Below are positions 4,610 through 27,513 of a DNA stretch of 32,000 nt, piece by piece. The notes beneath the pieces are model-generated. The model saw only the letters and a list, made by a program, of their open reading frames with translations, was not told the DNA's origin and ran no database searches. Source of the DNA: Chlorogloea sp. CCALA 695 (lineage in GTDB: Bacteria; Cyanobacteriota; Cyanobacteriia; Cyanobacteriales; Chroococcidiopsidaceae); NCBI RefSeq assembly GCF_003003885.1, contig NZ_PVWN01000003.1:136520-168519 (forward strand), given 5' to 3'. Within the stretch, counting starts at the first letter, position 1. Each line of letters opens with the position of its first letter. A program made the translations under genes and the position numbers.

Positions 4610-5365
4610 ATGTCACCAAACAAGTTTAAGTTTCCAGTAAAAAGTTTGAGTTTAGTTGTCGGCGCGGCTTTGATGCTCGGACAAAATAGCCTAATAGCTA
4701 ATGCTCAAACCCCCGCCGATGTAGTGGTCGATACTGGCTCCAACGGTGGCTCTAATAGCGGCTCTAATAGCGGCACAAACCCTATTTACGATCGCAATAC
4801 TCGTTTTGCTTGCGAGTCTACTAGCGGTCAATACACCGTGATGTACTTCCCCGAAAGCCAACCCAATCAATCTTTTGCTTGGGCAACTCCTTCAGCTTTA
4901 GGCGGTGGGTGGAGTCCTCAAAAACGTTGCAACGAAATTGCTAGAAGATTAGAGCAGTATAGACCAGACGGCTTAATTGAACTAACTACCAGTGTCGAAA
5001 ATGGCTACAATACCGTTTGCGTAACTACCGAGCAAGTTCCCACTTGTCGGATTGTTTTAACTGTACCCCCCGGACAAGATCCTTTAACTACCCGCGATCG
5101 CGTTTTTGAAAATTTGACTGTAGCCGATAGCGGACAGCAAACTCAAGGAGTTTATACCTACTCCGCCGGACGAGGAAACTCTCAAGTAGACCAACTAATA
5201 AATAGAGGGAGAGCGATTTTAGGCGGCTCAAATAATAGCCAACAGAGTAATGCTATCAATCTGCGACCATTTTTAGATCGCGCTGATGGCGGAACGGGTG
5301 CAATGCTAAATAACGGCGTACCAGCAAAAACCCAACGCCAGCTAAAACCTGGTAGTTTCCGTTAG
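4610..5365 (+). CDS. Secreted COP23-like (circadian oscillating protein) domain protein
   Basis: 251 aa with a signal peptide (KSLSLVVGAALMLGQNSLIANAQ) and a GSNS low-complexity linker. The Cys-containing core FACE..GQYTVMY..W..P..RC..IA.R...NGYNTVCV...C matches my recollection of the COP23 family. Confidence 0.55.
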   Translation: MSPNKFKFPVKSLSLVVGAALMLGQNSLIANAQTPADVVVDTGSNGGSNSGSNSGTNPIYDRNTRFACESTSGQYTVMYFPESQPNQSFAWATPSALGGGWSPQKRCNEIARRLEQYRPDGLIELTTSVENGYNTVCVTTEQVPTCRIVLTVPPGQDPLTTRDRVFENLTVADSGQQTQGVYTYSAGRGNSQVDQLINRGRAILGGSNNSQQSNAINLRPFLDRADGGTGAMLNNGVPAKTQRQLKPGSFR

Positions 5366-13030: not shown

Positions 13031-13115
13031 TCGTCCGCCACAGAATACAACTGTTGTATTTTACAGCTTTACTCAACCTACTGCTGTTTCCGTGGCAGTT
13101 TCTTCTAGTTTGCTA

Positions 13116-13144
13116 TGTGACACATCGTCCGTAGACTGATAGTC
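13116..13144 (+). promoter_or_regulatory. C-box operator pair upstream of the controller (C) gene
   Basis: TGTGACACATCGTCCGTAGACTGATAGTC. The proximal half is a perfect GACT-N3-AGTC C-box (13134-13144) and the distal half is GACACATCGTC. It ends 22 bp upstream of the C-gene ATG. Confidence 0.7.
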
Positions 13145-13166
13145 ATTAAACTTTCACAATCAGCAG

Positions 13167-13415
13167 ATGAATGGAGCAAAAAAAAAGATTCTTGCTGCCT
13201 TGGGTCAACTTGTTAAGCAGCGCCGAGTAGCATTGAAAATTTCTCAAGAAGAACTAGGGCTACGCGCTAACTTAGATCGAACATACATTTCTGGAGTAGA
13301 ACGAGGCTTACGCAACCCTTCTTTAACGGCTCTTACCAGCCTTGCTAGTGGATTAGGTATTACTGTTGCAAATCTTCTGGACAATTTAGAGATAGAAGTG
13401 GAAAAGATAAAGTGA
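13167..13415 (+). CDS. XRE-family HTH controller (C) protein of an R-M system
   Basis: 82 aa with HTH ISQEELGLRANLDRTYISGVERGLRNPSL. Its stop overlaps the next ORF start (GTGA), and a C-box lies upstream. Confidence 0.8.
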   Translation: MNGAKKKILAALGQLVKQRRVALKISQEELGLRANLDRTYISGVERGLRNPSLTALTSLASGLGITVANLLDNLEIEVEKIK

Positions 13416-13940
13416 GTAAGGGAACTTTAGCAGAAACGATTAAATCGCAACTAAAAGCAGACTCAAGCCAATATAAAGTCTTTAATCTTCTATCCGATCA
13501 AAAATGGCATTGTCGGCAATGTGAGGGAAAACAAATAGCTTCAGGTCAGTATGCTGGTGGTGGCGGAATCCAAGGTTTACAACGCGGGGGAACAAAGCGC
13601 CGATCATCGGTTTCCAATGGAGCGATGGAGAGAAAGTGAACCACCACACCTTAGTTCTATGAGTGAGAATGAAATAAAAAAAAAGTTTCAGTTATTGAAA
13701 AAAGATGCGTCTGGCAATCATAATCTTTTAAAATCAAGAAGTTGCGAACGCTGCATTAAAACAGACAATAGAGGTACGCCCTTTAACATCAAGTTTTGGT
13801 ACGAAGGCGGCGAAAAATGGTCTTCGAGCCACAAAAAAGGTGCGGAAGCTGAAGCGGGTTGTGTAGGATGTGGTTGGTATGATTTTGCCGCTTGGCGCAA
13901 CGCTCTTAATCAAAAACTATCTTCTCCTCACAATGATTGA
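13412..13940 (+). pseudogene. Putative restriction endonuclease gene, apparently split by a frameshift
   Basis: Two overlapping ORFs in different frames (13412-13639 and 13551-13940) together fill the C-to-M interval. The first is coupled to the C gene. Cys pairs are present (WHCRQCEG, CERC, CVGCG). A G5 run lies at 13586-13590 within the overlap. Confidence 0.45.
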
Positions 13941-15087
13941 CAACAACTTGAGTTGAAGATGCGATCGCATTCAAATTAGGTATGAGCGCATAACCTATAC
14001 ACTCGGCTAGCCGGGGAGGTACAGCATTACCAATTTGCCACATTGCCTTTTTCATTGAACCCGCAAAAATAAAACTATCGGGAAATGTTTGAAATCGAGC
14101 CATTTCACGGGCAGAAATTACGCGGTTAAGGTACGGATGGATGTGAGTACCGCCGTGATTTTCCTTAATAGTCATGCTAGGTTTGCCTGGATACTGGCGT
14201 TTAAAAGCATCAACATAGGTTTCGTACAATGAACCGCCTGGAGGAACTTTTGCCAGTCGTTCCATGTATTCTTGTGAATGTCGAGTCCACTGATGGTTTA
14301 TTTCAGGAATAGGAGTATAGGCTGGAAGATCAAAAATAGCTGACTCAATAGGTTTGTAGTTTTCCATCGCTAATTGAGCTTTCGGGTATGGGTTGCTTTT
14401 TCCAAATCTGTTAGCAATAAAAATTGCTCTGGGGCGAATTTGTGGTAATCCATAATCCGCAGATTCAAGAATGGCAATAGAAATATGGGGATAACCAATG
14501 GCTGCAAAAGCGTCACAAATGGCTTTTTTGACAGCGCCATTTTTAATAGTCAAAATCCCCGGTACATTTTCCATGACAACATACCAAGGTCGAATTTCTG
14601 CAACAATGCGGATAAATTCTTGAAATAAACGATTGCGATTGTCCTCTGGATTGCGTTTTCCGGCAACAGAGAAACCTTGACACGGCGGGCCTCCTACCAC
14701 AAGATGGACTTCAGTAGAAAGAAGATCGCCCTGCCAATTTTTGGGATTGAAGGTTTCTATGTCACCACAAAAATGATGGCATTCTTGAAAGTTTCTTGTA
14801 TAAGTTTCTGAAGCAACTGGGTTAACTTCTACACTCGCTACTGGTTTAAATCCTGCTGTTAGTAAGCCTTGGGTCATGCCTCCTGCACCACAGAAAAGAT
14901 CGACAAATGTATAGTTAATCATTGGATTAACAGGCGATGCAACGTCTACAAATATTTTGGATGTGTCGTAGTTATTTGCATCTAATTCGCGTTTAATGCG
15001 TTCGTAACGACCCAACTTTGCTTTCTTTTGCTTCTTAATGATGTCTTCTTTGATTTTAGAAAACAAAGATAGCTGTATGTTTTGCAT
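13906..15087 (-). CDS. DNA (cytosine-5)-methyltransferase
   Basis: 393 aa with motif I DLFCGAGGMTQG, motif IV GGPPCQGFS, motif VI MENVPG, motif VIII QIRPRAIF and motif X GNAVPP. Convergent with the C-R operon, with 3' ends overlapping. Confidence 0.95.
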   Translation of the reverse strand: MQNIQLSLFSKIKEDIIKKQKKAKLGRYERIKRELDANNYDTSKIFVDVASPVNPMINYTFVDLFCGAGGMTQGLLTAGFKPVASVEVNPVASETYTRNFQECHHFCGDIETFNPKNWQGDLLSTEVHLVVGGPPCQGFSVAGKRNPEDNRNRLFQEFIRIVAEIRPWYVVMENVPGILTIKNGAVKKAICDAFAAIGYPHISIAILESADYGLPQIRPRAIFIANRFGKSNPYPKAQLAMENYKPIESAIFDLPAYTPIPEINHQWTRHSQEYMERLAKVPPGGSLYETYVDAFKRQYPGKPSMTIKENHGGTHIHPYLNRVISAREMARFQTFPDSFIFAGSMKKAMWQIGNAVPPRLAECIGYALIPNLNAIASSTQVVVNHCEEKIVFD

Positions 15088-15112
15088 TGATGTTGTAATA
15101 GATATGCTTTAT

Positions 15113-15134
15113 TGTGACACATCGTCTACATGAC
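15113..15134. promoter_or_regulatory. C-box-like half operator in the methyltransferase promoter region
   Basis: TGTGACACATCGTCTACATGAC shares 14 identical nt (TGTGACACATCGTC) with the distal C-box at 13116. It lies 26-47 bp upstream of the M start codon (15087). Confidence 0.55.
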
Positions 15135-15188
15135 CTCAAGAAAGTATTGAAAGGCTAGTTTGTCAGGTCTTGATCTAGATGTCGGAAT

Positions 15189-15220
15189 TGTTAACAATTA
15201 GCGATCGCTAATTGTTAACA
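15189..15220. repeat. 32-bp perfect palindrome centred on a HIP1 site
   Basis: TGTTAACAATTAGCGATCGCTAATTGTTAACA. Every one of the 16 mirrored pairs is complementary. It sits between the comM stop and the M-gene promoter. Confidence 0.9.
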
Positions 15221-15262
15221 GTAACTTGAAAGGGTTAAAAAACTGTTTTTGAAAACTCACAC

Positions 15263-16726
15263 TTATTGCATTCGGTCGATAGTTCGGTACTGCACAGCCT
15301 CCGCAACGTGGCTTGTAAGTAAATTTTCTTCCCCGGCTAAGTCGGCAATAGTTCTTGCTACTTTAAGGATGCGATCGCTTGCTCTAGCTGATAGACCGAG
15401 TTTACGAATCGCTACTTCTAATAAATTGCGGCTAGAATCATCAAGCTGACACCACTGCTGTAAATGGCGGCTTTGCATCGCGGCATTGCAAAGTAGGTTT
15501 TTTTCTGCCTTAAAACGATTGTAAGCCATGTCGCGGGCTTGCTTGACGCGGATACGGACAGGTTCGGAGGCTTCTCCCCTAGGTTGAGCGGTAATTTCTT
15601 CAGGCTTTAATCGATTAACCGCAACTTGCAAATCGATTCTGTCCATCAACGGCCCAGAAAGTTTTGCCCAATATTGTTCTCTTTGCCTAGGTGAACAACT
15701 GCAAGCTTGAATAGTGTCGCCAAAATAGCCGCAGGGACAAGGGTTTGTGCTGGCAATTAAAGTAAACTGTGCTGGAAACATCACCGATTGGCGAGTACGT
15801 GACACTGTTACATAGCCGTCTTCTAAAGGCTGGCGGAGAAATTCTAATACATCGCGCTTAAATTCTGTAAGCTCATCCAAAAAAAGTATACCCCGGTGGG
15901 CTAAAGATATCTCTCCAGGACGCGGAAAACTACCGCCGCCAACTAGCGCTGGGCCAGAGGCGGAATGGTGCGGACTGCGAAAGGGGCGATCGCGTACCAA
16001 CAATCCACGATTTTTTAATAACCCAGCGACAGAATGAACTTGAGTAACTTCTAAAGACTCCTCAAAACTCAAAGGTGGCAAAATGCCCGGTAAACGCCTA
16101 GCAAGCATAGTTTTTCCACTCCCCGGCGGCCCCACAAAAATTAAATTATGCCCTCCCGCCGCCGCTATCTCTAAGGCTCTACGAGCATGAACTTGTCCTT
16201 TGACATCTTTTAAATCTGCACTATTTACTAGCGACGTTACTAAGATTGTTTCATCTAGCTTTACTGGCTCATAACGCTCTGGTTGATTTAAAAAAGTTGC
16301 TACTTCTGCTAAATATTTGAAACCATATACATTTAATCCGGCAACTACCGCCGCTTCTTGGGCATTGTCAAAAGGTACAACTAAGCTAGTAATCCCTAGT
16401 TTTTTTGCCGCCGCCGCAATAGGTAAAACTCCCGCCACCGATCGCAATGTCCCATCAAGGGAAACTTCGCCTAAAAATAAATGATCTCCCAATAACTGAG
16501 CGCTCACCTGCTCGGAAGCTGCCATAATGCCTACACTAATTGGTAAGTCAAAGCTCGGCCCCTCTTTGCGTAAGTCCGCCGGAGTTAAGTTAATAATGAT
16601 TTTTCGCAGAGGAAAAGCATAACCAGCATTTTTCAGCGCGGCTTTTACCCTTTCGCGGGATTCTTGGACGGCGGTATCGGGCAAACCTACAAGCACTATT
16701 GCTGGTAAACCGCCTGATACATCAAC
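15263..16726 (-). pseudogene. comM: comM/yifB (Mg-chelatase-like AAA+ ATPase), 3' part from codon 22/23 onward, severed by the CAST insertion
   Basis: The ORF has a Lon-protease-like N-domain (GLPDTAVQESRERVKAAL), Walker A (GPPGSGKT) and a ChlI-like C-terminus. The first 11 codons of the tracked ORF (MSQRQTISHCT, TTG start) are encoded by the transposon end, not by comM. Confidence 0.9.
16722..16726. repeat. Target-site duplication copy 1 (TCAAC)
   Basis: TCAAC lies immediately outside TGTACAGTGAC. An identical pentamer is at 27446-27450, just outside the other terminus. Confidence 0.8.
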
Positions 16727-16940
16727 TGTACAGTGACTAATTGTTTGTCGTTGGGACAAATTGTTGTCATCTGATAAAGCCTTATACAGCAGACATTGTA
16801 GCTATTTAATATCATATGGTCAATTCATTAGTAGTGACATAATAAATGTCATTTTCTATGATCTTGACAAGTTAACTGTCGCTTTAAGAATTGGGGAAAA
16901 GTTTTGTATATTTTCATAATGACAAATTGACTGTCGCTTT
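16727..16940. repeat. tnsB-proximal transposon end with about 5 TnsB-binding-type repeats
   Basis: TGTACAGTGACTAATTGTTTGTCGTT, GGGACAAATTGTTGTCAT, GTGACATAATAAATGTCAT (about 16833), TTGACAAGTTAACTGTCGCTTT (about 16864) and ATGACAAATTGACTGTCGCTTT (about 16919). Confidence 0.8.
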
Positions 16941-16953
16941 TCAAACAGTTAAG

Positions 16954-16968
16954 ATAACATTATGTGTT
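16954..16968. promoter_or_regulatory. CvkR-type operator upstream of tnsB
   Basis: ATAACATTATGTGTT fits the palindromic AnnACATnATGTnnT motif recalled for CvkR. It matches the cas12k-proximal site at 14 of 15 nt and ends 17 bp before the tnsB ATG. Confidence 0.6.
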
Positions 16969-16984
16969 TATAAAGTTTGCTTTT

Positions 16985-18739
16985 ATGAGCAGAGAGGAAA
17001 GTTTTGATTTGACTGTTCATACCCTAGAAATCCCTGGGAAAGACATACCAATAGCAGATAACACACCCTCTGAAACTAATGTAATTGTGACAAATCTCTC
17101 GGAGGAAGCTCAACTTAAGCTAGAAGTCTTAAAAAGTTTGATCGAACTGTGCGATCGCACTACCTATGGGCAGAAGTTGCAGGAGGCGGCTGGAAAACTA
17201 GGTGTATCGGTGCGAACTGTGCAAAGGCTAGTCAAAAAGTGGGAGCAGGATGGCGTAGCTGGACTCACTCAAACTGGCAGGGCTGATAAAGGAAAACATC
17301 GAATTGGTGAGTTTTGGGAAACCTTCATCCTCAAAACCTATCGGGAGGGTAATTAGGGTAGTAAACGCATGACCCCCAAACAAGTTGCTCTTAGAGTCCA
17401 GGCTAAAGCCCATGCGCTAGAGGACGTTAAGCCGCCTAATTACAAAACTGTATTACGAGTATTAGCACCCATCTTAGAAAAACAAGAAAAAACTAAGAGT
17501 ATCCGCAGCCCTGGTTGGAGAGGGACAACACTTTCAGTTAAAACTCGTGAAGGAAAAGATTTATCCGTTGATTACAGCAACCATGTTTGGCAATGCGACC
17601 ACACCCGTGTAGATGTATTACTGGTAGATCAACATGGTGAACTCCTAAGCCGTCCTTGGTTAACAACAGTAATCGATACTTATTCACGCTGCATTATGGG
17701 TATTAATTTAGGCTTTGATGCACCTAGCTCTGAGATTGTGGCATTAGGATTGCGTCATGCTATTTTGCCCAAATTGTACGGTGCAGAATACAAGTTACAT
17801 TGCGAGTGGGGAACCGATGGTAAGCCAGAACATTTTTACACTGATGGCGGTAAAGATTTTCGCTCTAACCACTTGAGTCAGATTGCAACGCAATTAGGTT
17901 TTGTTTGTCATTTACGCGATCGCCCTTCTGAAGGTGGAGTAGTCGAACGTCCCTTCAAAACATTAAATGACCAGCTATTTTCAACACTTCCTGGCTATAC
18001 AGGTTCTAATGTACAAGAACGCCCAAAGGATGCAGAGAAGGATGCAAGACTAACTCTGAGAGAACTGGAACAGCTACTTGTGGGTTACATAGTGAATCGT
18101 TACAACCAAAGTATTGATGCTCGTATGGGCGATCAAACTAGATTTGGGCGTTGGGAAGCAGGATTGCCTACAGTGCCAGTATCAATATCAGAACGAGAGT
18201 TGGATATCTGTTTAATGAGGCAGTCACGGCGTACTGTGCAAAGAGGTGGTTACTTGCAGTTTCAGAACTTGATGTATCGAGGGGAATATCTGGAAGGTTA
18301 TGCAGGGGAAACTGTGAACTTAAGGTTTAACCCTAGAGATATTACAACGATTCTGATTTATCGTCAAGAGAAAAATCAGGAAGTATTTCTCACTCGCGCT
18401 CATACTCAAGGTTTGGAGACAGAGAAACTGTCATTAGATGAGGCTGAGGTAGCAAGCCGCAGACTTCGCGCCGCAGGTAAAACTATCAGTAATCAATCAT
18501 TATTGCAAGAAGTTCTTGAACGTGATGCTTTTGTGACCAGTAAGAAAAGCCGTAAGGATCGGCAAAAGTTGGAGCAAGCTGTTTTACGACCTACTCCGAT
18601 CAATGAAAGTAAAACAGAGTTTTTGTCTTTTCAAATAGTTGAACCGGATGATTTGGAGTCAACGGCTGAAATTAAATTCACTTGCGAAGAACTTGAGGTG
18701 TGGGACTATGACCAACTTCGTGAAGAATATGGGTTTTAG
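16985..18739 (+). pseudogene. tnsB: TnsB DDE transposase (V-K CAST) interrupted by one in-frame TAG
   Basis: The two tracked ORFs (16964-17356 and 17369-18739) are in the same frame, reading ...TYREGN-TAG(17354-17356)-GSKRMTPKQVALRV.... The likely true start is the ATG at 16985 (MSREESFDLTVHTLEIPG). The HTH N-domain, DDE core (WQCDHTRVD, YTDGGKDFRS, ERPFKTLN) and C-terminal tail are all present. Confidence 0.85.
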
Positions 18740-18742
18740 ACA

Positions 18743-19573
18743 ATGATAGAAGCTCAAGACTTCGCCAATCAATTGGGTGGAGTGAAACCAGATGATGAGT
18801 GGTTACAAATTGAAATTACTCGTCTCAAGGGAAAGAGTATTGTTCCATTACATCAAGTAAAAACTCTCCACGATTGGCTAGATGGAAAGCGCAAATCCAG
18901 ACAATCCTGTCGAGTAGTTGGGGAATCAAGAACTGGCAAGACTGTTGCCTGTGATGCCTATAGGTATAGACAAAAACCACAGCAAGAAGTTGGTAGACCC
19001 CCGATCGTACCTGTTGTTTATATTCAGCCTCCACAAAAATGTGGCTCTAAGGATTTATTTAAGGAGATGATTGAGTACCTTAAGTTTCGTGCAACCAACG
19101 GGACTGTTTCAGATTTTCGTGGTAGAGCGATGGAGGTACTCAAGGGGTGTGGGGTAGAAATGTTGATTATTGATGAAGCAGATCGTCTTAAGCCTGAAAC
19201 GTTTGCTGAGGTGCGAGATATTTATGACAAGTTAGGCATTGCTGTAGTATTAGTAGGAACAGACCGCTTGGAGGCAGTGATCAAGCGGGATGAACAAGTT
19301 TATAACCGTTTTCGGGCTTGCCATCGCTTTGGTAAGTTATCGGGGAAAGAATTCCAAGATACAGTGCAAGCTTGGGAAGAGAGGGTTTTAAAGCTGCCTT
19401 TATCTTCTAATTTAACTAGCAAGGATATGTTACGAATTCTCACATCGGCAACTGGAGGTTACATTGGTCGGCTAGATGAAATTCTCAGGGACGCAGCGAT
19501 TCGGTCGTTATCCAAGGGGTTTAAAAAGATTGATAAGGCTGTTTTACAGGCAGTTGCTCAGGAGTATAAGTAA
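18743..19573 (+). CDS. tnsC: TnsC AAA+ ATPase (V-K CAST)
   Basis: 276 aa with Walker A GESRTGKT and Walker B LIIDEADRL. High similarity to my recollection of ShCAST TnsC. Tightly coupled to tnsB and tniQ. Confidence 0.93.
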   Translation: MIEAQDFANQLGGVKPDDEWLQIEITRLKGKSIVPLHQVKTLHDWLDGKRKSRQSCRVVGESRTGKTVACDAYRYRQKPQQEVGRPPIVPVVYIQPPQKCGSKDLFKEMIEYLKFRATNGTVSDFRGRAMEVLKGCGVEMLIIDEADRLKPETFAEVRDIYDKLGIAVVLVGTDRLEAVIKRDEQVYNRFRACHRFGKLSGKEFQDTVQAWEERVLKLPLSSNLTSKDMLRILTSATGGYIGRLDEILRDAAIRSLSKGFKKIDKAVLQAVAQEYK

Positions 19574-20079
19574 TGACAGCACCAGATATTAAACCTTGGC
19601 TTTTCATTGTAGAACCATATCTAGGGGAAAGCCTAAGCCATTTTTTAGGTCGATTTAGACGTGCTAACCATTTGTCCCCTGCTGGGCTGGGTAATTTAGC
19701 AGAAATTGGTGCTGTAGTGGCACGTTGGGAAAGATTTCATTTTAACCCTCGCCCTAGTCAGCAAGAATTGAGTGCGATCGCATCTGTTGTAGAAGTGGAT
19801 GCCAAGACGTTAGCCGAGATGCTGCCACCTGCTGGGGTGGGTATGCAGCATGAACCCGTTAGGTTATGTGGTGGTTGTTATGCAGAAATACCTTGTCACC
19901 GGATTGCGTGGCAGTTTAAGGAGACGGGGAAATGCGATCGCCACAATTTGCGTTTACTGTCTAAGTGTCCCAAGTGCGAGGCTAGATTCAAAATTCCAGC
20001 TTTATGGGAGGATGGATGCTGCAATCGCTGTCGGTTGCCGTTTGGTAATATGGTAAGTTGTCAAAAGTTAGCGCTCTAA
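19573..20079 (+). CDS. tniQ: TniQ (short V-K type)
   Basis: 168 aa. PWLFIVEPYLGESLSHFLGRFRRANHLS plus Cys-rich zinc-ribbon motifs (CGGCY, CDRH, CPKC, CCNRC). The ATGA-type overlap with tnsC supports coupling. Confidence 0.92.
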   Translation: MTAPDIKPWLFIVEPYLGESLSHFLGRFRRANHLSPAGLGNLAEIGAVVARWERFHFNPRPSQQELSAIASVVEVDAKTLAEMLPPAGVGMQHEPVRLCGGCYAEIPCHRIAWQFKETGKCDRHNLRLLSKCPKCEARFKIPALWEDGCCNRCRLPFGNMVSCQKLAL

Positions 20080-20099
20080 GCTAATTAAAGAAAGCCAGT

Positions 20100-22151
20100 T
20101 CAACTGTCATTCAGAGAAAAGGCATAGTTACCATCTGGAAATCTGATAACTGGAACCCAGAAAGGTACTCCATCCCAACCACCTTGAGCATCAACGTTAC
20201 CTCTTAATCTAGTCATCAACAAAGTAGGATAATTGGGGTCAACACCATAAGGTATGTTCCCTGCATCACCAGGCATAACGCTACCAAGTTGGGTATAGTT
20301 CCTACTAGCGCTTTTCTTTAAATTTGAGTCTCTGTTAATAATTAATAATATACCTGTGTTTTGATATCTGGGATTATCTCGCAGAGTAAAAACAGCTTGC
20401 CTGATCAAATCATCATTCCAAGCACCACTTGATTCAGGCGTTGCATAGTGAAACTTAAGAATCTCTAACATCTCATCAATTGTTGCGTTATATGGCTGTT
20501 TCAGACTAGGATACTTAGCTATAGACAGAAGATTATCAAGTTCCTGAGTTTGGTTACTCAAAGTATTAGGTTCAGATATTGGTAGGGATGGAAAATACTG
20601 CTTTCCTCCTTGATAAGTTACCAAATTAACCGTATTTTCATTTAATACATTACGGCGAGTCGGTTTTATTCCTTTCGCTACCAAAGGAATCACCTGAATA
20701 GGTAAATTAGTTGCCTGACACTGCTCTCTAACTAAATTATCACTGACATGAATATCTACAAATCTTTGAGCTAAATGAACTGGTAAATAAATACGAGTTG
20801 CTGGTAGTTCATTTTGACGGTATCCATACATTCTTGCGTGCTGTAAAACTGTATCCATCTGAGGTTGTTGAGCATCTCTACCATAGTAAGTAACTAGAAG
20901 ATCCTTGACAGTCACACCCCGCCCTATCTTTGTACCACCTATGTAAAGGGTATGTTTTCTTGCTGGAGTAGGTTTAATTCCTTCACCACTATCAGAGTTA
21001 ATTTCTATAATTTCTGTAGAGGTTATTCGTCTTGCTGTTTCTACTAAAACATCATGAAATGGTGGAACATTTACAAAAGTTTGTTGTAAATCATCGTAAG
21101 CATTTTGTAATTGTGTTCTGAGCGCAGAAGATACACCTATTATTGGGTCATTAGGATTTTGTCTAAGCTGGTTCATCAATTCCTGCTTAAATTTATCAAC
21201 TAATTCTGCTGCTAAATGATGCTGTTCCTGTCTAAAGCTAGTATGCAGCAGATATGTATAGTTTTTTCGATTTTCCTGTATCCTTAAAATTGCTGCCCCT
21301 AGAAAAAATACCAACATTGACTGTATCACAGTATCAGGAATACGATTGCTAGTCTGCAACCTACCAAGCTCAATGTCAGGTACTAAGCGAATATGATTTG
21401 AATTACTAAAGTTACTGTCACCAAAAAAATAGTTACCACCAACGTAACCTGTACCAGGTATAGTAACAACTACAAAATTTGGTCTAAAAGCACTTTGACT
21501 ATCTTGTAATAATAATGATTGAGGAGTAGCGGTAGTTTGCAAGTATGTATGAGAATTAAGATAAGTTCTTAAATCAACAATTGCTCGATTTACTGCGCTT
21601 GTAGGTTTGTTTAGATCATTAATATTAGTATCTAAACTAGCTTGATCTGCCTCATCGTCAATAATGATAACTGATTGAGCTTGCCAGTTTGATATCCGAA
21701 CAATATTTAAAGCACCTCGCAAATGGGTTGGATGTTTAGGACAAACTAAAGCTAGTAGTAAACCAGGAGTAGCTCTTGAATTTTGTTTAATTTCTGTCTT
21801 ACCAAAAACTTGAAAACTATCTAATGCTCCTTTGATTCTTTCAAGCGTCTGCTCATAGATATCATTTAGATTTGATGTCATAACTACGAAATTATTAAAG
21901 CCGTTATCTGCGGCTAATGCCATCGTTGTCAGAATAACGGATGTTTTCCCGCTTTGGATATGTCCATAAATTAATCCTTTCACAGAACCAATTTTTGCAG
22001 GCTCTAAACATCTTTCTAATACTTCAATTGCCGTCTTAAGTATTAACTCAAAATCAGCATATGAAATATTTTCTTCATCATGTAGATACTCTTTGAGATT
22101 ACTAATATTATCTCCTTCTAAAGTATTTATCTGTGCCATATTATACCTCAT
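20100..22151 (-). CDS. Z1-domain ATPase/helicase-like protein (methylase-associated putative restriction component), CAST cargo
   Basis: 683 aa with Walker A GHIQSGKTS, DEAD-like IIIDDEADQAS, TTATPQS, and the Z1 signature GGTKIGRGVTVKDLLVTYYGR...DTVLQHARMYGYR. Immediately downstream of a C5-MTase in the same orientation. Confidence 0.75.
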   Translation of the reverse strand: MRYNMAQINTLEGDNISNLKEYLHDEENISYADFELILKTAIEVLERCLEPAKIGSVKGLIYGHIQSGKTSVILTTMALAADNGFNNFVVMTSNLNDIYEQTLERIKGALDSFQVFGKTEIKQNSRATPGLLLALVCPKHPTHLRGALNIVRISNWQAQSVIIIDDEADQASLDTNINDLNKPTSAVNRAIVDLRTYLNSHTYLQTTATPQSLLLQDSQSAFRPNFVVVTIPGTGYVGGNYFFGDSNFSNSNHIRLVPDIELGRLQTSNRIPDTVIQSMLVFFLGAAILRIQENRKNYTYLLHTSFRQEQHHLAAELVDKFKQELMNQLRQNPNDPIIGVSSALRTQLQNAYDDLQQTFVNVPPFHDVLVETARRITSTEIIEINSDSGEGIKPTPARKHTLYIGGTKIGRGVTVKDLLVTYYGRDAQQPQMDTVLQHARMYGYRQNELPATRIYLPVHLAQRFVDIHVSDNLVREQCQATNLPIQVIPLVAKGIKPTRRNVLNENTVNLVTYQGGKQYFPSLPISEPNTLSNQTQELDNLLSIAKYPSLKQPYNATIDEMLEILKFHYATPESSGAWNDDLIRQAVFTLRDNPRYQNTGILLIINRDSNLKKSASRNYTQLGSVMPGDAGNIPYGVDPNYPTLLMTRLRGNVDAQGGWDGVPFWVPVIRFPDGNYAFSLNDS

Positions 22152-22180
22152 TAAGTTATTAGAAATTTAGTAAATAAAAG

Positions 22181-23563
22181 CTATAGCTTTAGTATGTATC
22201 GCGCTATCGCTAGTGTTAAAAGAAAACTAACAGTATTAGCTAACTGCTGTTGCTTGTGCGCTAAACCCAGACCTTTAGAATTATCAGTAGTGCCACAAAA
22301 AGTAAACCAATCAGGAAGAGACTGTAGACGACTGGCTTCCCGTAATGATAATCCTCTATTTTGCTCTGGATGAATTATCATGCTTTTACGATAATTACCA
22401 ATTGTGATTGAAGGTTCATCCCATCTTAACCGTCTGTAGATATTGCTATGGGTATTTTCTATGTCAGAATAATTAGTCATCATGTGTCGAATATTCTTCC
22501 AGTTTCCACCCGCCGGAATGTGTCTATACCTATCAATTACATAATCCGCCTGTTTTGAAACAATGTGACCTTCAATAGTATCTAGGCTTGCCATTTGGCG
22601 CATTTGTTGCAAAAACGGATTCGAGTTTAATTGTTCCTGTGTAGGTTCGTCGTACTCTTGAACAACTCGGCTTTCACCATTCTCAACCACAGGTAGACTG
22701 GCAATTGCTTCTTTGACTGTCACATAGTTGTATCTACCTATTGCTCCATGTGTAGGTAAGGGAAATGCGCCCCATTCACCAAAACTATCAACTTTATAAC
22801 CTAAACTTTGGTGCAATGCCAATAAAAAAAATCTATTCCGGTGTTGTGGAACTCCATACCAAGCAGCATCTAAAACTGCGGGGAAAAGAATATACCCAGC
22901 ATCCGCAAATTTTCTGGCAATATAATCAACTACCGTTAATTTGTGCTTATTTTTGCCTTTGTTAGAACGAGGTGTCCATAAAATACCCTGTACATTTTCC
23001 AAAAGAATTGCTTTCGGTGCTAGTTCTAAGGAACATTCGATAAAGTATTCAACGAGTTGATTATAAGTATTCTTAGCATTCCAATTACTTCGATTGGATT
23101 GTGAAAAACCTTGGCAAGGTGTTCCACCAATAACAAGATCGACACCATCTGCTCTTTTAACGCTTTCATATACCAGTTGGCAATCGTGTTTTTTGGTTAA
23201 ATCGATAGGGATAAAGTTGTTAGGAATACTGTCTTGGATGCTTTTAGTTGAGTGATTATAAAAATGTTTATAATTAGTTTCGAGACTTCTTAAATATATC
23301 GGATTAATTTCGGCAGATTTTATAATTCTGAAGCATTTTTTTTTGTCCCCAGCCATCAGAAATCCAACCCCCATTCCGCCTGCTCCAGCAAAAAGCTCAA
23401 CTACACGTACATCATTTCTGGAGGCTGTGAGCGCACCATGTAGAGCAATATCTTGCTTTACTGGAGACAAAGAGCTATTAAGTTCCTGATCTTGTTCTTT
23501 AGATAATTTAATATTAGCTCTATAACGAACCCTCGACCCTGGATTGCAAGCTGGCTTGATCAT
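22181..23563 (-). CDS. DNA (cytosine-5)-methyltransferase, CAST cargo
   Basis: 460 aa with motif I ELFAGAGGMGVGF, motif IV GGTPCQGFS, motif VI LLENVQG and motif VIII QHRNRFF. Visibly AT-richer than the flanking host genes. Confidence 0.9.
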   Translation of the reverse strand: MIKPACNPGSRVRYRANIKLSKEQDQELNSSLSPVKQDIALHGALTASRNDVRVVELFAGAGGMGVGFLMAGDKKKCFRIIKSAEINPIYLRSLETNYKHFYNHSTKSIQDSIPNNFIPIDLTKKHDCQLVYESVKRADGVDLVIGGTPCQGFSQSNRSNWNAKNTYNQLVEYFIECSLELAPKAILLENVQGILWTPRSNKGKNKHKLTVVDYIARKFADAGYILFPAVLDAAWYGVPQHRNRFFLLALHQSLGYKVDSFGEWGAFPLPTHGAIGRYNYVTVKEAIASLPVVENGESRVVQEYDEPTQEQLNSNPFLQQMRQMASLDTIEGHIVSKQADYVIDRYRHIPAGGNWKNIRHMMTNYSDIENTHSNIYRRLRWDEPSITIGNYRKSMIIHPEQNRGLSLREASRLQSLPDWFTFCGTTDNSKGLGLAHKQQQLANTVSFLLTLAIARYILKL

Positions 23564-23667
23564 AAAATATTTTTTTTAAGCAAGGAATTGAATTATAAGA
23601 CAGTTTGCATCTGGGCTAAATACCCACGTACAAGTTGAAATTAGTATCAGGATTACAGTATTAACAC

Positions 23668-24120
23668 TTATTTAACATAACTTTGGAGATTATCCCTTAA
23701 TTGTTGATGCACGTGATCGCACCAAAGAGGAATCACAGTTTGCCCCTGACAAAGTGCTTCTAGCGCTACTTGCTTGTCAAACTCTGCTATTCGCAAAAGT
23801 TGTCCCTGCGATCGCCTGGCTAAAAACATCAGTCGCTTCATCTGTTTTTGGGTAACAGACGGCTCGAATAACCAAGGTTCTTCCTCACGTAATGTCTCTA
23901 AAGCTGCATGGCAAACCTCAAAATTTAAACCGATTGACAGCAATTGTTCCATCACTGCCAGTGCCAATAAGTCAGCCTTGGAATAGTAAACATTACGACC
24001 CTTACCAGTCGTGTTGACCGTAGGTACAATAATTCCCTTCTCACGCCAATACTGTAACTGTCGCCGAGAGCAATTAGTAATTTTTGCTGCTTCTGTGCTG
24101 GTATAGAACTTTTCTTCCAT
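23668..24120 (-). CDS. cvkR: MerR-family repressor of V-K CAST (CvkR-like)
   Basis: 150 aa with a MerR HTH (YTSTEAAKITNCSRRQLQYWREKGII). Divergent from cas12k with an 80-bp intergenic region carrying the palindromic operator. Confidence 0.8.
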   Translation of the reverse strand: MEEKFYTSTEAAKITNCSRRQLQYWREKGIIVPTVNTTGKGRNVYYSKADLLALAVMEQLLSIGLNFEVCHAALETLREEEPWLFEPSVTQKQMKRLMFLARRSQGQLLRIAEFDKQVALEALCQGQTVIPLWCDHVHQQLRDNLQSYVK

Positions 24121-24166
24121 AAAACCATCCTATAGAAGCATTTCCTGAAACACACTAAATTTTTAA

Positions 24167-24181
24167 ACAACATTATGTGTT
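24167..24181. promoter_or_regulatory. CvkR-type operator in the cvkR-cas12k divergent promoter region
   Basis: ACAACATTATGTGTT fits AnnACATnATGTnnT and ends 20 bp before the cas12k ATG. Confidence 0.65.
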
Positions 24182-24200
24182 TTTGTGATATTGTATTTTC

Positions 24201-26117
24201 ATGAGTCAAAGTACCGTTCAATGCCGCTTAATTGCCAGTACATCCACTCGTCAACAACTTTGGAAGTTGATGGCACAATTAAATACACCCCTAATTAACG
24301 AAATACTTCAACAGCTTAATAAACATCCAGACTTTGAGAAATGGCGGAAAAATGGCAAACTGCCATCAACTGTTGTTAGCCAACTTTGCCATCCCCTGAA
24401 AACGGATCTTCGCTTTGTAGGTCAGCCCAGTCGTTTGTATACATCAGCAATTCATGTTGTCGATTACATCTACAAATCTTGGTTAGCAATCCATAAACGT
24501 TTACAGCAGCAGCTAGATGGCAAAATACGCTGGCTAGAAATGCTCAACAGTGATGCTGAATTAGTAGAAACTAGCTTTTGTAGCTTAGAGGAGATTCGTA
24601 CCAAAGCTGCTGATATTTTGGCAATGACTACGCCAGAATCTGACGCTAATGCTCCTTTAATTGAAAGAAGAAAGACTAAGAAATCAAAAAAATCATCTAC
24701 TTCAAATTCTGACCGGGGATTATCTCATAAATTATTTGATGCTTACCAAAATACCGAAGACAGACTCCGTCGTAGCGCCATCAGCTATCTGCTGAAAAAT
24801 GGCTGTAAACTGAAGGACAAAGAAGATCCGGAACAATTTGCTAAACGCCGTCGTAAGCTAGAAATCCAAATTCAAAGGCTGACAGAAAAGCTAACAAGTC
24901 GAATTCCTAAAGGTCGAGATTTGGCTAATGCCAAATGGTTGGAAACACTCTTTACTGCTACAACTACTGTTCCAGAAGACAATGCTGAAGCCAAACGCTG
25001 GCAAGATATTTTATTAACCAGATCGAGTCTCCTCCCCTTTCCCCTGGTCTTTGAAACAAACGAAGACCTTGTTTGGTCAACAAATGAAAAAGGTCGGCTA
25101 TGTGTCCACTTCAATGGCTTGAGCGATTTAACTTTTGAAGTGTACTGCGATAGTCGTCAACTGCATTGGTTTAAACGCTTCTTAGAAGACCAACAGACTA
25201 AACGTAAAAGCAAAAATCAGCATTCTAGTGGCTTGTTTACCCTTAGAAATGGTCGTTTAGCTTGGCTTGAAGGCAAAGGTAAAGGCGAACCTTGGGAACT
25301 TCACCACTTAACTCTCTACTGCTGTGTTGATACTCGCCTGTGGACTACTGAAGGCACAGAACAAGTGCGCCAGGAAAAAACAAATGAGATTACTAAATTT
25401 ATTACAAAGATGAAGGAGAAGACAGACCTGAGTGTCACTCAGCAAGCTTTTGTTCAGCGTAAACAATCAACACTTACTCGAATAAATAATTCCTTTGAGC
25501 GTCCCAATAAACCTGTTTACCAAGGTCAATCAAACATTTTGGTTGGAGTAAGCTTAGGACTAGAGAAACCTGCCACAGTAGCGGTAGTAGATGCGCTCAC
25601 CAACAAAGTCTTGGCTTGCCGGAGTACCAGACAACTACTTAATGAAAATTACGAGCTTCTAAATCGCCAAAGACGACAACAGCAATCTTTATCCCACGAA
25701 CGCCACAAAGCCCAAAAAAGCTTCTCTCCCAACCAACTTGGAGCTTCTGAGTTAGGGCAGTATGTAGACAGATTATTGGCTAAAGAAATTGTAGCGATCG
25801 CACAAAGCTATTTTGCAGGCAGTATAGTATTGCCTAAGCTGGGTGATATGCGAGAGATTATTCAATGTGAAATTCAAGCCATAGCCGAGGCAAAATGTCC
25901 TGGTTCCAAAGAAATTCAAAAAAATTATGCCAAGCAATATCGAGTAAACGTCCATCAATGGAGCTATGGCAGATTACTTCAAAACATTCAAAGTAAAGCT
26001 ACTCAGATGGGAATTGTGATTGAAGAAGGTAAACAACCTGTTCGTGGTAGTCCCCAAGACAAAGCACAAGAATTAGCACTCTCTGCTTACAAGCTGCGCC
26101 TAGCTAGGCAAAGTTGA
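24201..26117 (+). CDS. cas12k: Cas12k (nuclease-deficient type V-K effector)
   Basis: 638 aa. Collinear with my recollection of ShCas12k along the whole length (MSQ..Q.RLI, QQLWKLMA.LNTPLINE, GLFTLRNG, VGVSLGLEKPATVAVVDA, YRVNVH.WSYGRL). Confidence 0.95.
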   Translation: MSQSTVQCRLIASTSTRQQLWKLMAQLNTPLINEILQQLNKHPDFEKWRKNGKLPSTVVSQLCHPLKTDLRFVGQPSRLYTSAIHVVDYIYKSWLAIHKRLQQQLDGKIRWLEMLNSDAELVETSFCSLEEIRTKAADILAMTTPESDANAPLIERRKTKKSKKSSTSNSDRGLSHKLFDAYQNTEDRLRRSAISYLLKNGCKLKDKEDPEQFAKRRRKLEIQIQRLTEKLTSRIPKGRDLANAKWLETLFTATTTVPEDNAEAKRWQDILLTRSSLLPFPLVFETNEDLVWSTNEKGRLCVHFNGLSDLTFEVYCDSRQLHWFKRFLEDQQTKRKSKNQHSSGLFTLRNGRLAWLEGKGKGEPWELHHLTLYCCVDTRLWTTEGTEQVRQEKTNEITKFITKMKEKTDLSVTQQAFVQRKQSTLTRINNSFERPNKPVYQGQSNILVGVSLGLEKPATVAVVDALTNKVLACRSTRQLLNENYELLNRQRRQQQSLSHERHKAQKSFSPNQLGASELGQYVDRLLAKEIVAIAQSYFAGSIVLPKLGDMREIIQCEIQAIAEAKCPGSKEIQKNYAKQYRVNVHQWSYGRLLQNIQSKATQMGIVIEEGKQPVRGSPQDKAQELALSAYKLRLARQS

Positions 26118-26142
26118 CAGATATCCGAACCTTGATAATAGA

Positions 26143-26365
26143 ATATTTAATAGCGCCGCAGTTCATGCTGTTTACAGCCTCTGAACTGTGTTAAATGAGG
26201 GTTAGTTTGGCTGTAGCAATATAGTCTTGCTTTCTGACCCTAGTAGCTACTCACCCTGATGCTGCTGTCTTTATGACAGGATAGGTGCGCTCCCAGCAAT
26301 AAGGGCGCGGATGTACTGCTGTAGTGGCTACTGAATCACCCCCGATCAAGGGGGAACCCTCCCCA
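26143..26365 (+). ncRNA. tracrRNA of the V-K system
   Basis: ATATTTAATAGCGCCGCAGTTCATGCTG...GGATAGGTGCGCTCCCAGCAATAAGGGCGCGGATGTACTGCTGTAGTGGCTACTGAATCACCCCCGATCAAGGGGGAACCCTCC is near-identical in blocks to the ShCAST tracrRNA as I recall it. The 3' AACCCTCC is the anti-repeat for GG(C/T)GGGTT. Ends are approximate. Confidence 0.85.
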
Positions 26366-26564
26366 ATTCTTCCTTTGAAGAACTAAATTTGAGGCAAAAT
26401 TTCTCAGATACCCGCGCAAGTTCCAAATAGCTTGTCCAGTCTGGCTTTTATCGTTTTTTTATCAAAAAGTGATTCTTAAGGCTGAGGCTCAGATAGTAAA
26501 TTGAGGGACATTCGCGCTTGTGACATCTAGAAACATTGCCCCACAGTATTTTAAGCTTGGTGGT

Positions 26565-26978
26565 GTCACAACAACCCTCCAGGTACTCAGGCGGGTTGAA
26601 AGCGACAGTAAATATTAGTATTTTTATATAAAAAAGTCACAACAACCCTCCAGGTACTAGGCGGGTTGAAAGTTAAATCTACTTATTCTAAGTTATTAAG
26701 GGATACGTCACAACAACCCTCCAGGTACTAGGCGGGTTGAAAGGAAAAGCTGGTATGCCCCAGAGGTGACACTAGAGTCACAACAACCCTCCAGGTACTA
26801 GGCGGGTTGAAAGTTGTTTCTACTGGAAATAAAGGAATCACCCCGCAAGTCACAACAACCCTCCAGGTACTAGGCGGGTTGAAAGTAATAATTTCGCAAG
26901 CAAACAGTGGAGCCTGGATGTCAAACAAGCCTCCAGGTACTAGGTGGGTTGAAAGAGCAAGAGTATGGATTGAAGCCA
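26565..26978 (+). CRISPR. V-K CRISPR array: 6 repeats, 5 regular spacers plus a terminal homing spacer
   Basis: Repeat GTCACAACAACCCTCCAGGTACTAGGCGGGTTGAAAG at 26565-26602 (38 nt, one extra C), 26636-26672, 26707-26743, 26777-26813 and 26849-26885. A diverged repeat GTCAAACAAGCCTCCAGGTACTAGGTGGGTTGAAAG is at 26920-26955. Spacers are 33, 34, 33, 35 and 34 nt. The terminal spacer starts at 26956. Confidence 0.95.
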
Positions 26979-27332
26979 AACTCAAAATATCCCTCGATAA
27001 TAGCTTTAAAGGCTGCAAACTTTCGTTAGTGTGCAGAACGAACAGCAGGTCAAGGAACAGGTAAGTCTTAAACTAAAAGGGATGGCAATGGAAAAGAATA
27101 TGCCGAAAAGAAAGCAACATGAGTTCAAAATGTTTCTCTGCAATTTGTAATAGTTGACAGTCAAATTCTACATTTGGTGTTTGCTTATTTATCCAGATAA
27201 TATACGTGGAATGTAGCTACCAATAACTGAGGACTATTACGACTAAGAATTTTTTGCAACACAACCTTGAGCAAAGTTCGTTTAAAGTTAAAGAGTGATA
27301 CGTTGACATCATCGCTACAGTCTCTGTAAGTT

Positions 27333-27445
27333 AATGACATTAATCCGTCACTGACACTTAAAAGACATTAATTTGTCTCGACGACAATTAAATAGTAATA
27401 ATGACACTAATGTGTCACCGACGACAAATAATTAGTCACTGTATA
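27333..27445. repeat. CRISPR-proximal (target-proximal) transposon end with about 4 TnsB-binding-type repeats
   Basis: Read inward from the terminus: TATACAGTGACTAATTATTTGTCGTCG, GTGACACATTAGTGTCAT, GAGACAAATTAATGTCTTT, GTGACGGATTAATGTCAT. The layout resembles what I recall as the ShCAST LE. Confidence 0.8.
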
Positions 27446-27450
27446 TCAAC
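27446..27450. repeat. Target-site duplication copy 2 (TCAAC)
   Basis: Identical to 16722-16726. The base just inside the element at this end (A, 27445) equals the host base preceding the other TSD copy (A, 16721), so a 6-bp duplication cannot be excluded. Confidence 0.8.
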
Positions 27451-27513
27451 CTCTACACCTACTTTGACGGCATCAATCCCAACAATTGCCGCACTCCATA
27501 CTCTTGCTAACAT
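27451..27513 (-). pseudogene. comM: comM/yifB 5' fragment (start codon plus first ~21 codons)
   Basis: The minus strand reads ATG TTA GCA AGA GTA TGG AGT GCG GCA ATT GTT GGG ATT GAT GCC GTC AAA GTA GGT GTA GAG (MLARVWSAAIVGIDAVKVGVE). It continues in frame through the TSD (GTTGA) into VDVSGGLP at 16726. Confidence 0.88.

Follow-up and report, generated by a model that had tools for sequence, protein, structure and literature searches.

Can an RNA-guided transposon home into a protein-coding gene and split it? The question is raised by a 32,000-nt stretch of the genome of Chlorogloea sp. CCALA 695 (contig NZ_PVWN01000003.1, positions 136,520 to 168,519; hereafter the window, whose numbering we use), in which a mobile element lies between two parts of comM (also called yifB), the gene for a helicase used in natural transformation. 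The element is a ShCAST-like type V-K CRISPR-associated transposon (CAST) of the standard kind, inserted in comM, and our analysis indicates that its own homing guide very probably directed it there.

Element ends and the split comM gene

A first-pass annotation, made from the letters alone, had placed the ends of the element, their TCAAC flanks and the repeat arrays inward of them, and all of these coordinates proved correct when checked against the sequence. TGTACAGTGAC is the terminus beginning at 16727 and GTCACTGTATA the terminus finishing at 27445, so that the element spans 10,719 bp, and the copies of TCAAC at 16722-16726 and 27446-27450 constitute a 5-bp target-site duplication. The termini are inverted repeats, identical between the two ends at 25 of the 30 outermost nt, and repeats of the GTGACA...TGTCG type lie inward of both, scattered at the 16727 end and set close together at the 27445 end. 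Following the convention of the field, we call the end beside the array (27445) left and the one beside tnsB (16727) right (PMC9938897). The insertion site comprises the following features:

15263-16726, minus strand: comM/yifB codons 22-508 and stop, the 3' part of the gene (Pfam ChlI, Mg_chelatase, Mg_chelatase_C); 16722-16726 is one copy of the duplication
16727-16945, plus strand: right end (tnsB-proximal), with the terminus TGTACAGTGAC and dispersed repeats resembling TnsB sites at about 16733, 16754, 16834, 16864 and 16919
27333-27445, plus strand: left end (array-proximal), with packed repeats resembling TnsB sites and the terminus ...GTCACTGTATA
27446-27450, no strand assigned: second copy of the target-site duplication, TCAAC; empty sites have one GTTGA
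27451-27513, minus strand: comM codons 1-21 (MLARVWSAAIVGIDAVKVGVE), the orphaned 5' fragment, identified by the excision join and homologue alignment

Read in comM, the duplicated bases are codon 22 (GTT) plus the GA that opens codon 23. Excision in silico, joining 27513-27451 to 16726-15263 (both on the minus strand), yields a single open reading frame (ORF) of 508 aa, whose match to TIGR00368 (YifB family) is unbroken and takes in the whole profile, positions 1-499 of 499 (750 bits; cut-off 362). The N-terminus of the joined protein, MLARVWSAAIVGIDAVKVGVE followed directly by VDVSGGL, aligns gap-free across the junction with 80 cyanobacterial ComM proteins, and a protein search returned intact 508-aa ComM homologues that are 94-98% identical.

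Natural empty sites carry the same sequence. A genome scan for ComM gave only intact genes of at most 83% identity, and the closer empty sites came from the protein search alone; DNA was compared from four contigs with an intact comM (L092, L093, L094 and L095). The uninterrupted comM of L092 (DNA 95.4% identical, no gaps) equals the in-silico excision product base for base from -55 to +70 relative to the ATG, and that of L093 (92.9% identical, also uninterrupted) shows no difference over the protospacer-adjacent motif (PAM), protospacer and junction discussed below. GTTGA is present once at the junction position in all four empty sites, and in all four a divergent HIT gene lies upstream of comM, as it does in the window. 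Downstream, purB follows comM in L094 and L095, and the contigs of L092 and L093 stop soon after comM; the gene order on both sides of the insertion in the window (HIT on one side; purB, DUF4126, ferrochelatase and CorA on the other) is that of L095. Because natural empty sites carry the excision-product sequence and a single GTTGA, the excision model is confirmed. An insertion inside comM at codons 22/23 and a protein of about 508 aa from the joined flanks had been put forward by the first-pass annotation, which named the joined ORF and the junction sequence of related empty sites as possible refutations; the restored ORF, its full-length match to TIGR00368 and the empty sites all bear the proposal out.

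Since the insertion parts codons 1-21 from the remaining 487, we infer that normal ComM is not made. These 487 codons at the 3' end remain an intact ORF, which suggests that the insertion is not ancient. Also on the minus strand, a TTG-initiated ORF of 498 aa (16759 to 15263) fuses 11 right-end codons to comM from codon 22 onward, and a promoter-like site, TTGACC-17-TACAAT (16823 to 16795, minus strand), faces it; judged solely from such consensus matches, an N-terminally altered ComM might still be produced.

The homing guide and its target

Inward from 16727 the element carries tnsB, tnsC, tniQ, two cargo genes, a MerR/CvkR regulator gene, cas12k, a tracrRNA and a CRISPR array, an order that agrees with the canonical V-K layout of Ziemann et al. 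(PMC9938897). Along tnsB-tnsC-tniQ, Pfam rve, Mu-transpos_C, TniB and TniQ are met in that order. The parts that bear on targeting are:

16985-18739, plus strand: tnsB pseudogene, about 90% identical to ShTnsB, with an in-frame TAG
18743-19573, plus strand: tnsC, AAA+ regulator (Pfam TniB 5e-34, AAA_22)
19573-20079, plus strand: tniQ of the short V-K type, 168 aa (Pfam TniQ)
24201-26117, plus strand: cas12k, 638 aa, 1119 bits over the full length to ShCas12k (PDB 7n3o)
26143-26364, plus strand: predicted tracrRNA with inferred coordinates, a conserved non-coding stretch after cas12k
26565-26955, plus strand: CRISPR array of six 37-nt repeats ending GGTTGAAAG and five spacers (Rfam CRISPR-DR15)
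26956-26972, plus strand: homing (attachment) spacer AGCAAGAGTATGGATTG, 17 nt, the final array guide, matching 27508-27492 on the minus strand; listed as att_spacer in Table S1 of Hsieh & Peters (bioRxiv 10.1101/2021.02.06.429022)
27492-27511, minus strand: guide target, with the PAM GTT at 27511-27509 overlapping the ATG and the protospacer at 27508-27492, comM codons 2-7

Cas12k is 79% identical to ShCas12k and is the same as the NCBI protein 'Cas12k [Chlorogloea sp. CCALA 695]'. The putative tracrRNA region shows 94% per-column identity over six elements whose Cas12k proteins are 83-88% identical, its stem changes are compensatory (GCTGT..ACAGC vs GCTGC..GCAGC), and its start relative to the cas12k stop codon fits the description in PMC9938897; no Rfam family matches the region. 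Cas12k, tnsB-tnsC-tniQ, the tracrRNA region, the array, the homing guide, the ends and the duplication all agree with the type V-K identity that the element had been assigned at first sight.

When the flanks were compared with the array region by k-mers, one match emerged, that between the final array guide and comM, which is exact over the first 14 nt and covers 16 of 17 overall. The G of the GTT PAM is the last base of the comM start codon, 63 nt separate the PAM from the left-end terminus downstream of it, and the target is on the left-end (array) side. Spacings from PAM to insertion in V-K elements range from 46 to 82 nt with a mean near 62 (PMC9938897; PMC12416283). As a positive control, the same script recovered GTN PAMs and spacings of 58, 63 and 60 nt in three tRNA-targeting relatives, namely L082 (Aulosira FACHB-615, Cas12k 85% identical), which has a 17-nt guide to tRNA-Leu(caa), and L090 (Nostoc DSM 114159) and L091 (Cas12k 84% identical), which have guides to tRNA-Val(gac); a further relative, L089, ends before its attachment site. 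The geometry of the comM insertion is that of homing events in the tRNA-targeting sisters. The script that finds the tRNA guides of these relatives found no other homing guide in the element, and there is no tRNA gene in the window. We also considered a target beside the tnsB-side end and rejected it, there being no guide match at the expected place in 16400-16726 and the literature placing the target on the array side (PMC9938897).

The element itself has been catalogued, as row 57 of Table S1 in the 2021 preprint of Hsieh & Peters (bioRxiv 10.1101/2021.02.06.429022), and all window coordinates fit that row with an offset of 136519. The row lists the guide, the protospacer, the PAM (AATGTT), the single mismatch, the pseudo tnsB and a right_end at contig position 153246; it labels the target "Unknown noncoding region" and is without a left end or duplication (10.1101/2021.02.06.429022). 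That the same spacer, protospacer and PAM were listed independently supports the guide-directed reading. Among relatives of this Cas12k, an identical comM guide occurs in one other locus, L081 (QQTW01007288.1, a metagenome contig, Cas12k 88% identical), which is decayed, lacking tnsBCQ and carrying insertion sequence debris after the array. A metagenome scan for a comM-type guide GTTGAAAGRGCNAGRGTNTGGA gave six matches, of which the sixth was L081; the other five were taken as chance, and their contigs have no homology to the element or to its Cas12k, TnsC, TniQ, MerR, ComM or HIT proteins.

In the mechanism we propose, Cas12k together with the tracrRNA and the final array guide would bind the 17-nt protospacer beside the GTT PAM, TniQ and TnsC would assemble at this target, and TnsB would insert the element about 60 bp downstream, with the left end nearest the target and with a 5-bp duplication. 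The RNA-guided recruitment of TniQ, TnsC and TnsB in this scheme would follow the experimentally established behaviour of V-K CASTs.

Several points count against homing by this guide. The RNA-guided step is read from geometry and family behaviour, and the element as it stands is without an intact tnsB. The guide mismatches its target at position 15 (window 26970; L081 5016), where the guide has T and comM has G; the change is on the guide side, both guide copies having T and all four empty sites G. The guide stands behind a full-length, degenerate repeat (the last of the array, 26919-26955) and not the short detached repeat of relatives, and beyond a single intact copy the searches gave just one decayed sister. 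A GTT PAM is present at this position in only 17 of 79 other cyanobacterial comM genes, and all 79 have at least three mismatches to the guide. Close empty sites have one or two mismatches to the guide, and PAM and protospacer in L092 and L093 are identical to those of the window. Because few comM genes have the PAM and none of the 79 has fewer than three mismatches, the guide is suited to a narrow host group only, in keeping with the remark of Hsieh & Peters that 17-nt guides are less well served by targets in protein-coding genes (bioRxiv 10.1101/2021.02.06.429022).

An attachment site within comM

We suggest, tentatively, that within a tRNA-homing clade one V-K lineage re-programmed its homing guide from a tRNA to the first codons of comM, with inactivation of comM as a selected strategy. 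The main alternative, which we consider unlikely, is that the comM spacer was an ordinary acquired spacer that led to a one-off insertion, and not an attachment site selected for comM disruption. The protospacer is indeed poorly conserved beyond close relatives, the guide is found in two loci only and, in the window, follows a full-length repeat within the array, and both copies that bear it are decaying. A one-off event accords less well with a match of only 17 nt, which is the length of V-K homing guides, vs 33-35 nt for the spacers of the array, or with the terminal place of the guide, one of those typical of homing guides. The absence of any other homing guide from the element also speaks for an attachment site, as do the type I-B1 CASTs, which likewise aim their final guide at comM (PMC9881144), and the unchanged guide in a sister whose Cas12k is only 88% identical.

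Far less probable is an RNA-independent insertion by untargeted TnsC/TnsB activity, with the guide match coincidental or acquired later. V-K CASTs are known to make untargeted insertions, but here the PAM, the 16/17 match, the 63-nt spacing and the left-end-proximal orientation occur together, and the spacing equals that of the tRNA-targeting sisters; a rough estimate puts the chance of a match of at least 16/17 with a GTN PAM at a permitted position for one of six spacers at about 1e-7. That the split gene is an artefact of assembly or a chimeric contig is equally improbable, for although the source is a draft assembly and the metagenomic sister contig L081 looks rearranged, matching 5-bp duplications and inverted-repeat termini stand at both junctions and the gene order on both sides agrees with an empty-site contig (L095).

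With homing into comM as the preferred reading, the element can be set beside known systems. It shares with ShCAST (Scytonema hofmanni UTEX 2349) the gene order, the tracrRNA and the 37-nt repeats ending GGTTGAAAG, and with ShCAST and V-K CASTs in general the 17-nt guide, GTN PAM, spacing of about 60 nt, left-end-proximal insertion and 5-bp duplication. ShCAST targets tRNA-Leu, and the closest relatives tRNA-Leu or tRNA-Val, whereas the CCALA 695 element targets the 5' coding region of comM; it further differs from ShCAST in splitting a gene, in having its guide as the last array unit behind a full-length repeat and in its tnsB pseudogene. The first-pass annotation had held that V-K elements sit downstream of tRNA genes without destroying a gene. 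The restriction to tRNA genes was too narrow, as ffs, mutS and mutL are also listed as V-K homing targets (bioRxiv 10.1101/2021.02.06.429022). By the coordinates listed in that preprint, the mutL protospacer lies 7-23 nt before the stop codon with the left end 41 nt after the stop, and the mutS protospacer 40-56 nt before the stop codon, so the mutS and mutL insertions look to fall downstream of the gene and seem non-disruptive. The mutS, mutL and ffs elements resemble the CCALA 695 element in having homing guides to non-tRNA targets; in the mutS and mutL cases insertion is past the gene, whereas here it falls at codons 22/23 of 508.

Two other Tn7-like systems also inactivate comM. Type I-B1 CASTs of cyanobacteria likewise direct a final array guide to the comM coding sequence and inactivate the gene, but do so with Cascade I-B, an ATG PAM and TnsA+TnsB (PMC9881144), and the CCALA 695 element has none of those genes: it contains no Cascade I-B ORFs, and no TnsA-like protein is found among its eight non-nested ORFs of at least 80 aa (two of which are the tnsB halves). 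Tn6022/AbaR islands of Acinetobacter baumannii are Tn7-like elements with a programmed attachment site that inactivates comM; they are protein-guided (TniQ + Orf3, TnsE), occur in Proteobacteria, and have tnsA and no CRISPR parts (PMC11406308), a combination of tnsA, protein selectors and missing CRISPR parts that the CCALA 695 element does not show. A tyrosine-recombinase element also targets comM in cyanobacteria (PMC9881144). Convergent use of comM by an RNA-guided element, raised as a possibility at first sight, is supported by the 17-nt comM guide, the GTT PAM and the canonical distance and orientation.

In the literature searched, no paper connects comM with V-K or Cas12k elements. The element and its guide were already known from the catalogue; new here are the identification of the insertion site, the placing of the left end and the duplication, the natural empty sites and the similarity to the I-B1 CASTs. 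The attachment site is new, but the element is of a known kind and there is no new mechanism; besides having been catalogued, this element is in decay and almost alone of its kind, and CASTs that target comM are themselves an established theme. If our reading is true, V-K elements would join Tn6022 and the type I-B1 CASTs as a third Tn7-like targeting system to have arrived independently at inactivating comM; among known V-K attachment sites this one would be the first at which a gene is destroyed, and homing would knock out a natural-transformation helicase. A third kind of Tn7-like targeting system landing in comM strengthens the idea that mobile elements gain by disabling natural transformation. 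The locus also provides a natural example of a V-K element that has exchanged a tRNA gene for a protein-coding gene as its homing target, and both tRNA-targeting sisters and natural empty sites can be compared with it. Other "unknown" sites in catalogues of this kind, such as the 28 rows labelled "Unknown noncoding region" in the preprint table, may likewise be orphaned 5' stubs of split genes.

State of the copy, cargo, sister locus and neighbouring genes

The TAG in tnsB lies at 17357-17359, at the position of ShTnsB K124; tnsB otherwise aligns end to end with ShTnsB and has no other disruption. The TAG could be an error of sequencing, or else one recent change that inactivated the gene. Because of it, this copy is probably immobile unless another element supplies TnsB. 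A second Cas12k element is present in the same genome (PVWN01000012.1, at tRNA-Pro; Table S1 row 58, bioRxiv 10.1101/2021.02.06.429022), and it might provide transposition proteins in trans. At the left-end terminus, 27440-27445 reads ...CTGTATA in place of the canonical ...CTGTACA. An inactivating left-end mutation was considered here and dropped, the TGTATA variant being present also in the tRNA-Val-targeting Nostoc relative L090 (9221-9226), and by this comparison the change in the terminal CA may be tolerated.

Between tniQ and cas12k lie the two cargo genes and the regulator:

20100-22151, minus strand: cargo, Z1-domain 'type II helicase domain' protein (Pfam Z1; PADLOC Helicase_II, 321 bits over the full length)
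22181-23563, minus strand: cargo, C5 cytosine DNA methyltransferase (Pfam DNA_methylase, TIGR00675, PADLOC MTase_II)
23668-24120, minus strand: MerR-type, CvkR-like regulator (Pfam MerR_1), divergent from cas12k; its position fits CvkR in PMC9938897

The pair of Z1 and methyltransferase genes, with two extra genes, also adjoins cas12k in the JGI relative P0003 (Cas12k 85% identical); other relatives carry BREX, DarT/DarG-like or GmrSD cargo instead.

In the sister locus L081 (regions 880-1260 and 4950-5340) a further truncated repeat with its spacer, GGGTTGAAAG-CTTGATTTTCTATGGGC, comes after the comM guide, and neither the L081 contig nor the window contains a target for this spacer. The HIT-psbA flank of L081 is inverted relative to the window and abuts a different Tn7-like end (TGTACATTCACAAATTA..., with four close repeats) 2 nt before the expected comM ATG, and the MerR gene and cas12k come directly after this foreign end. 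The arrangement could reflect inversion or deletion by a second element, or a chimeric assembly; rearrangement through a guide on the opposite comM strand was rejected for want of a suitable PAM. L081 and L094 (QQTW01011802.1) both come from GCA_003429145.1, and L094 is an intact HIT-comM empty site (ComM 95% identical), so occupied or rearranged and empty variants may coexist in one sample.

On the other side of the insertion, the interval between comM and purB in the window (13031-15262) holds a second C5 DNA methyltransferase gene (13906-15087, minus strand) and an ORF for a weakly ICEA-like nuclease (13551-13940). The corresponding gap measures 155 nt in L095 and contains a 182-aa ORF and an Mrr-like nuclease gene in L094; immediately past the end of comM there thus seems to be a distinct and variable site that holds restriction-modification genes.

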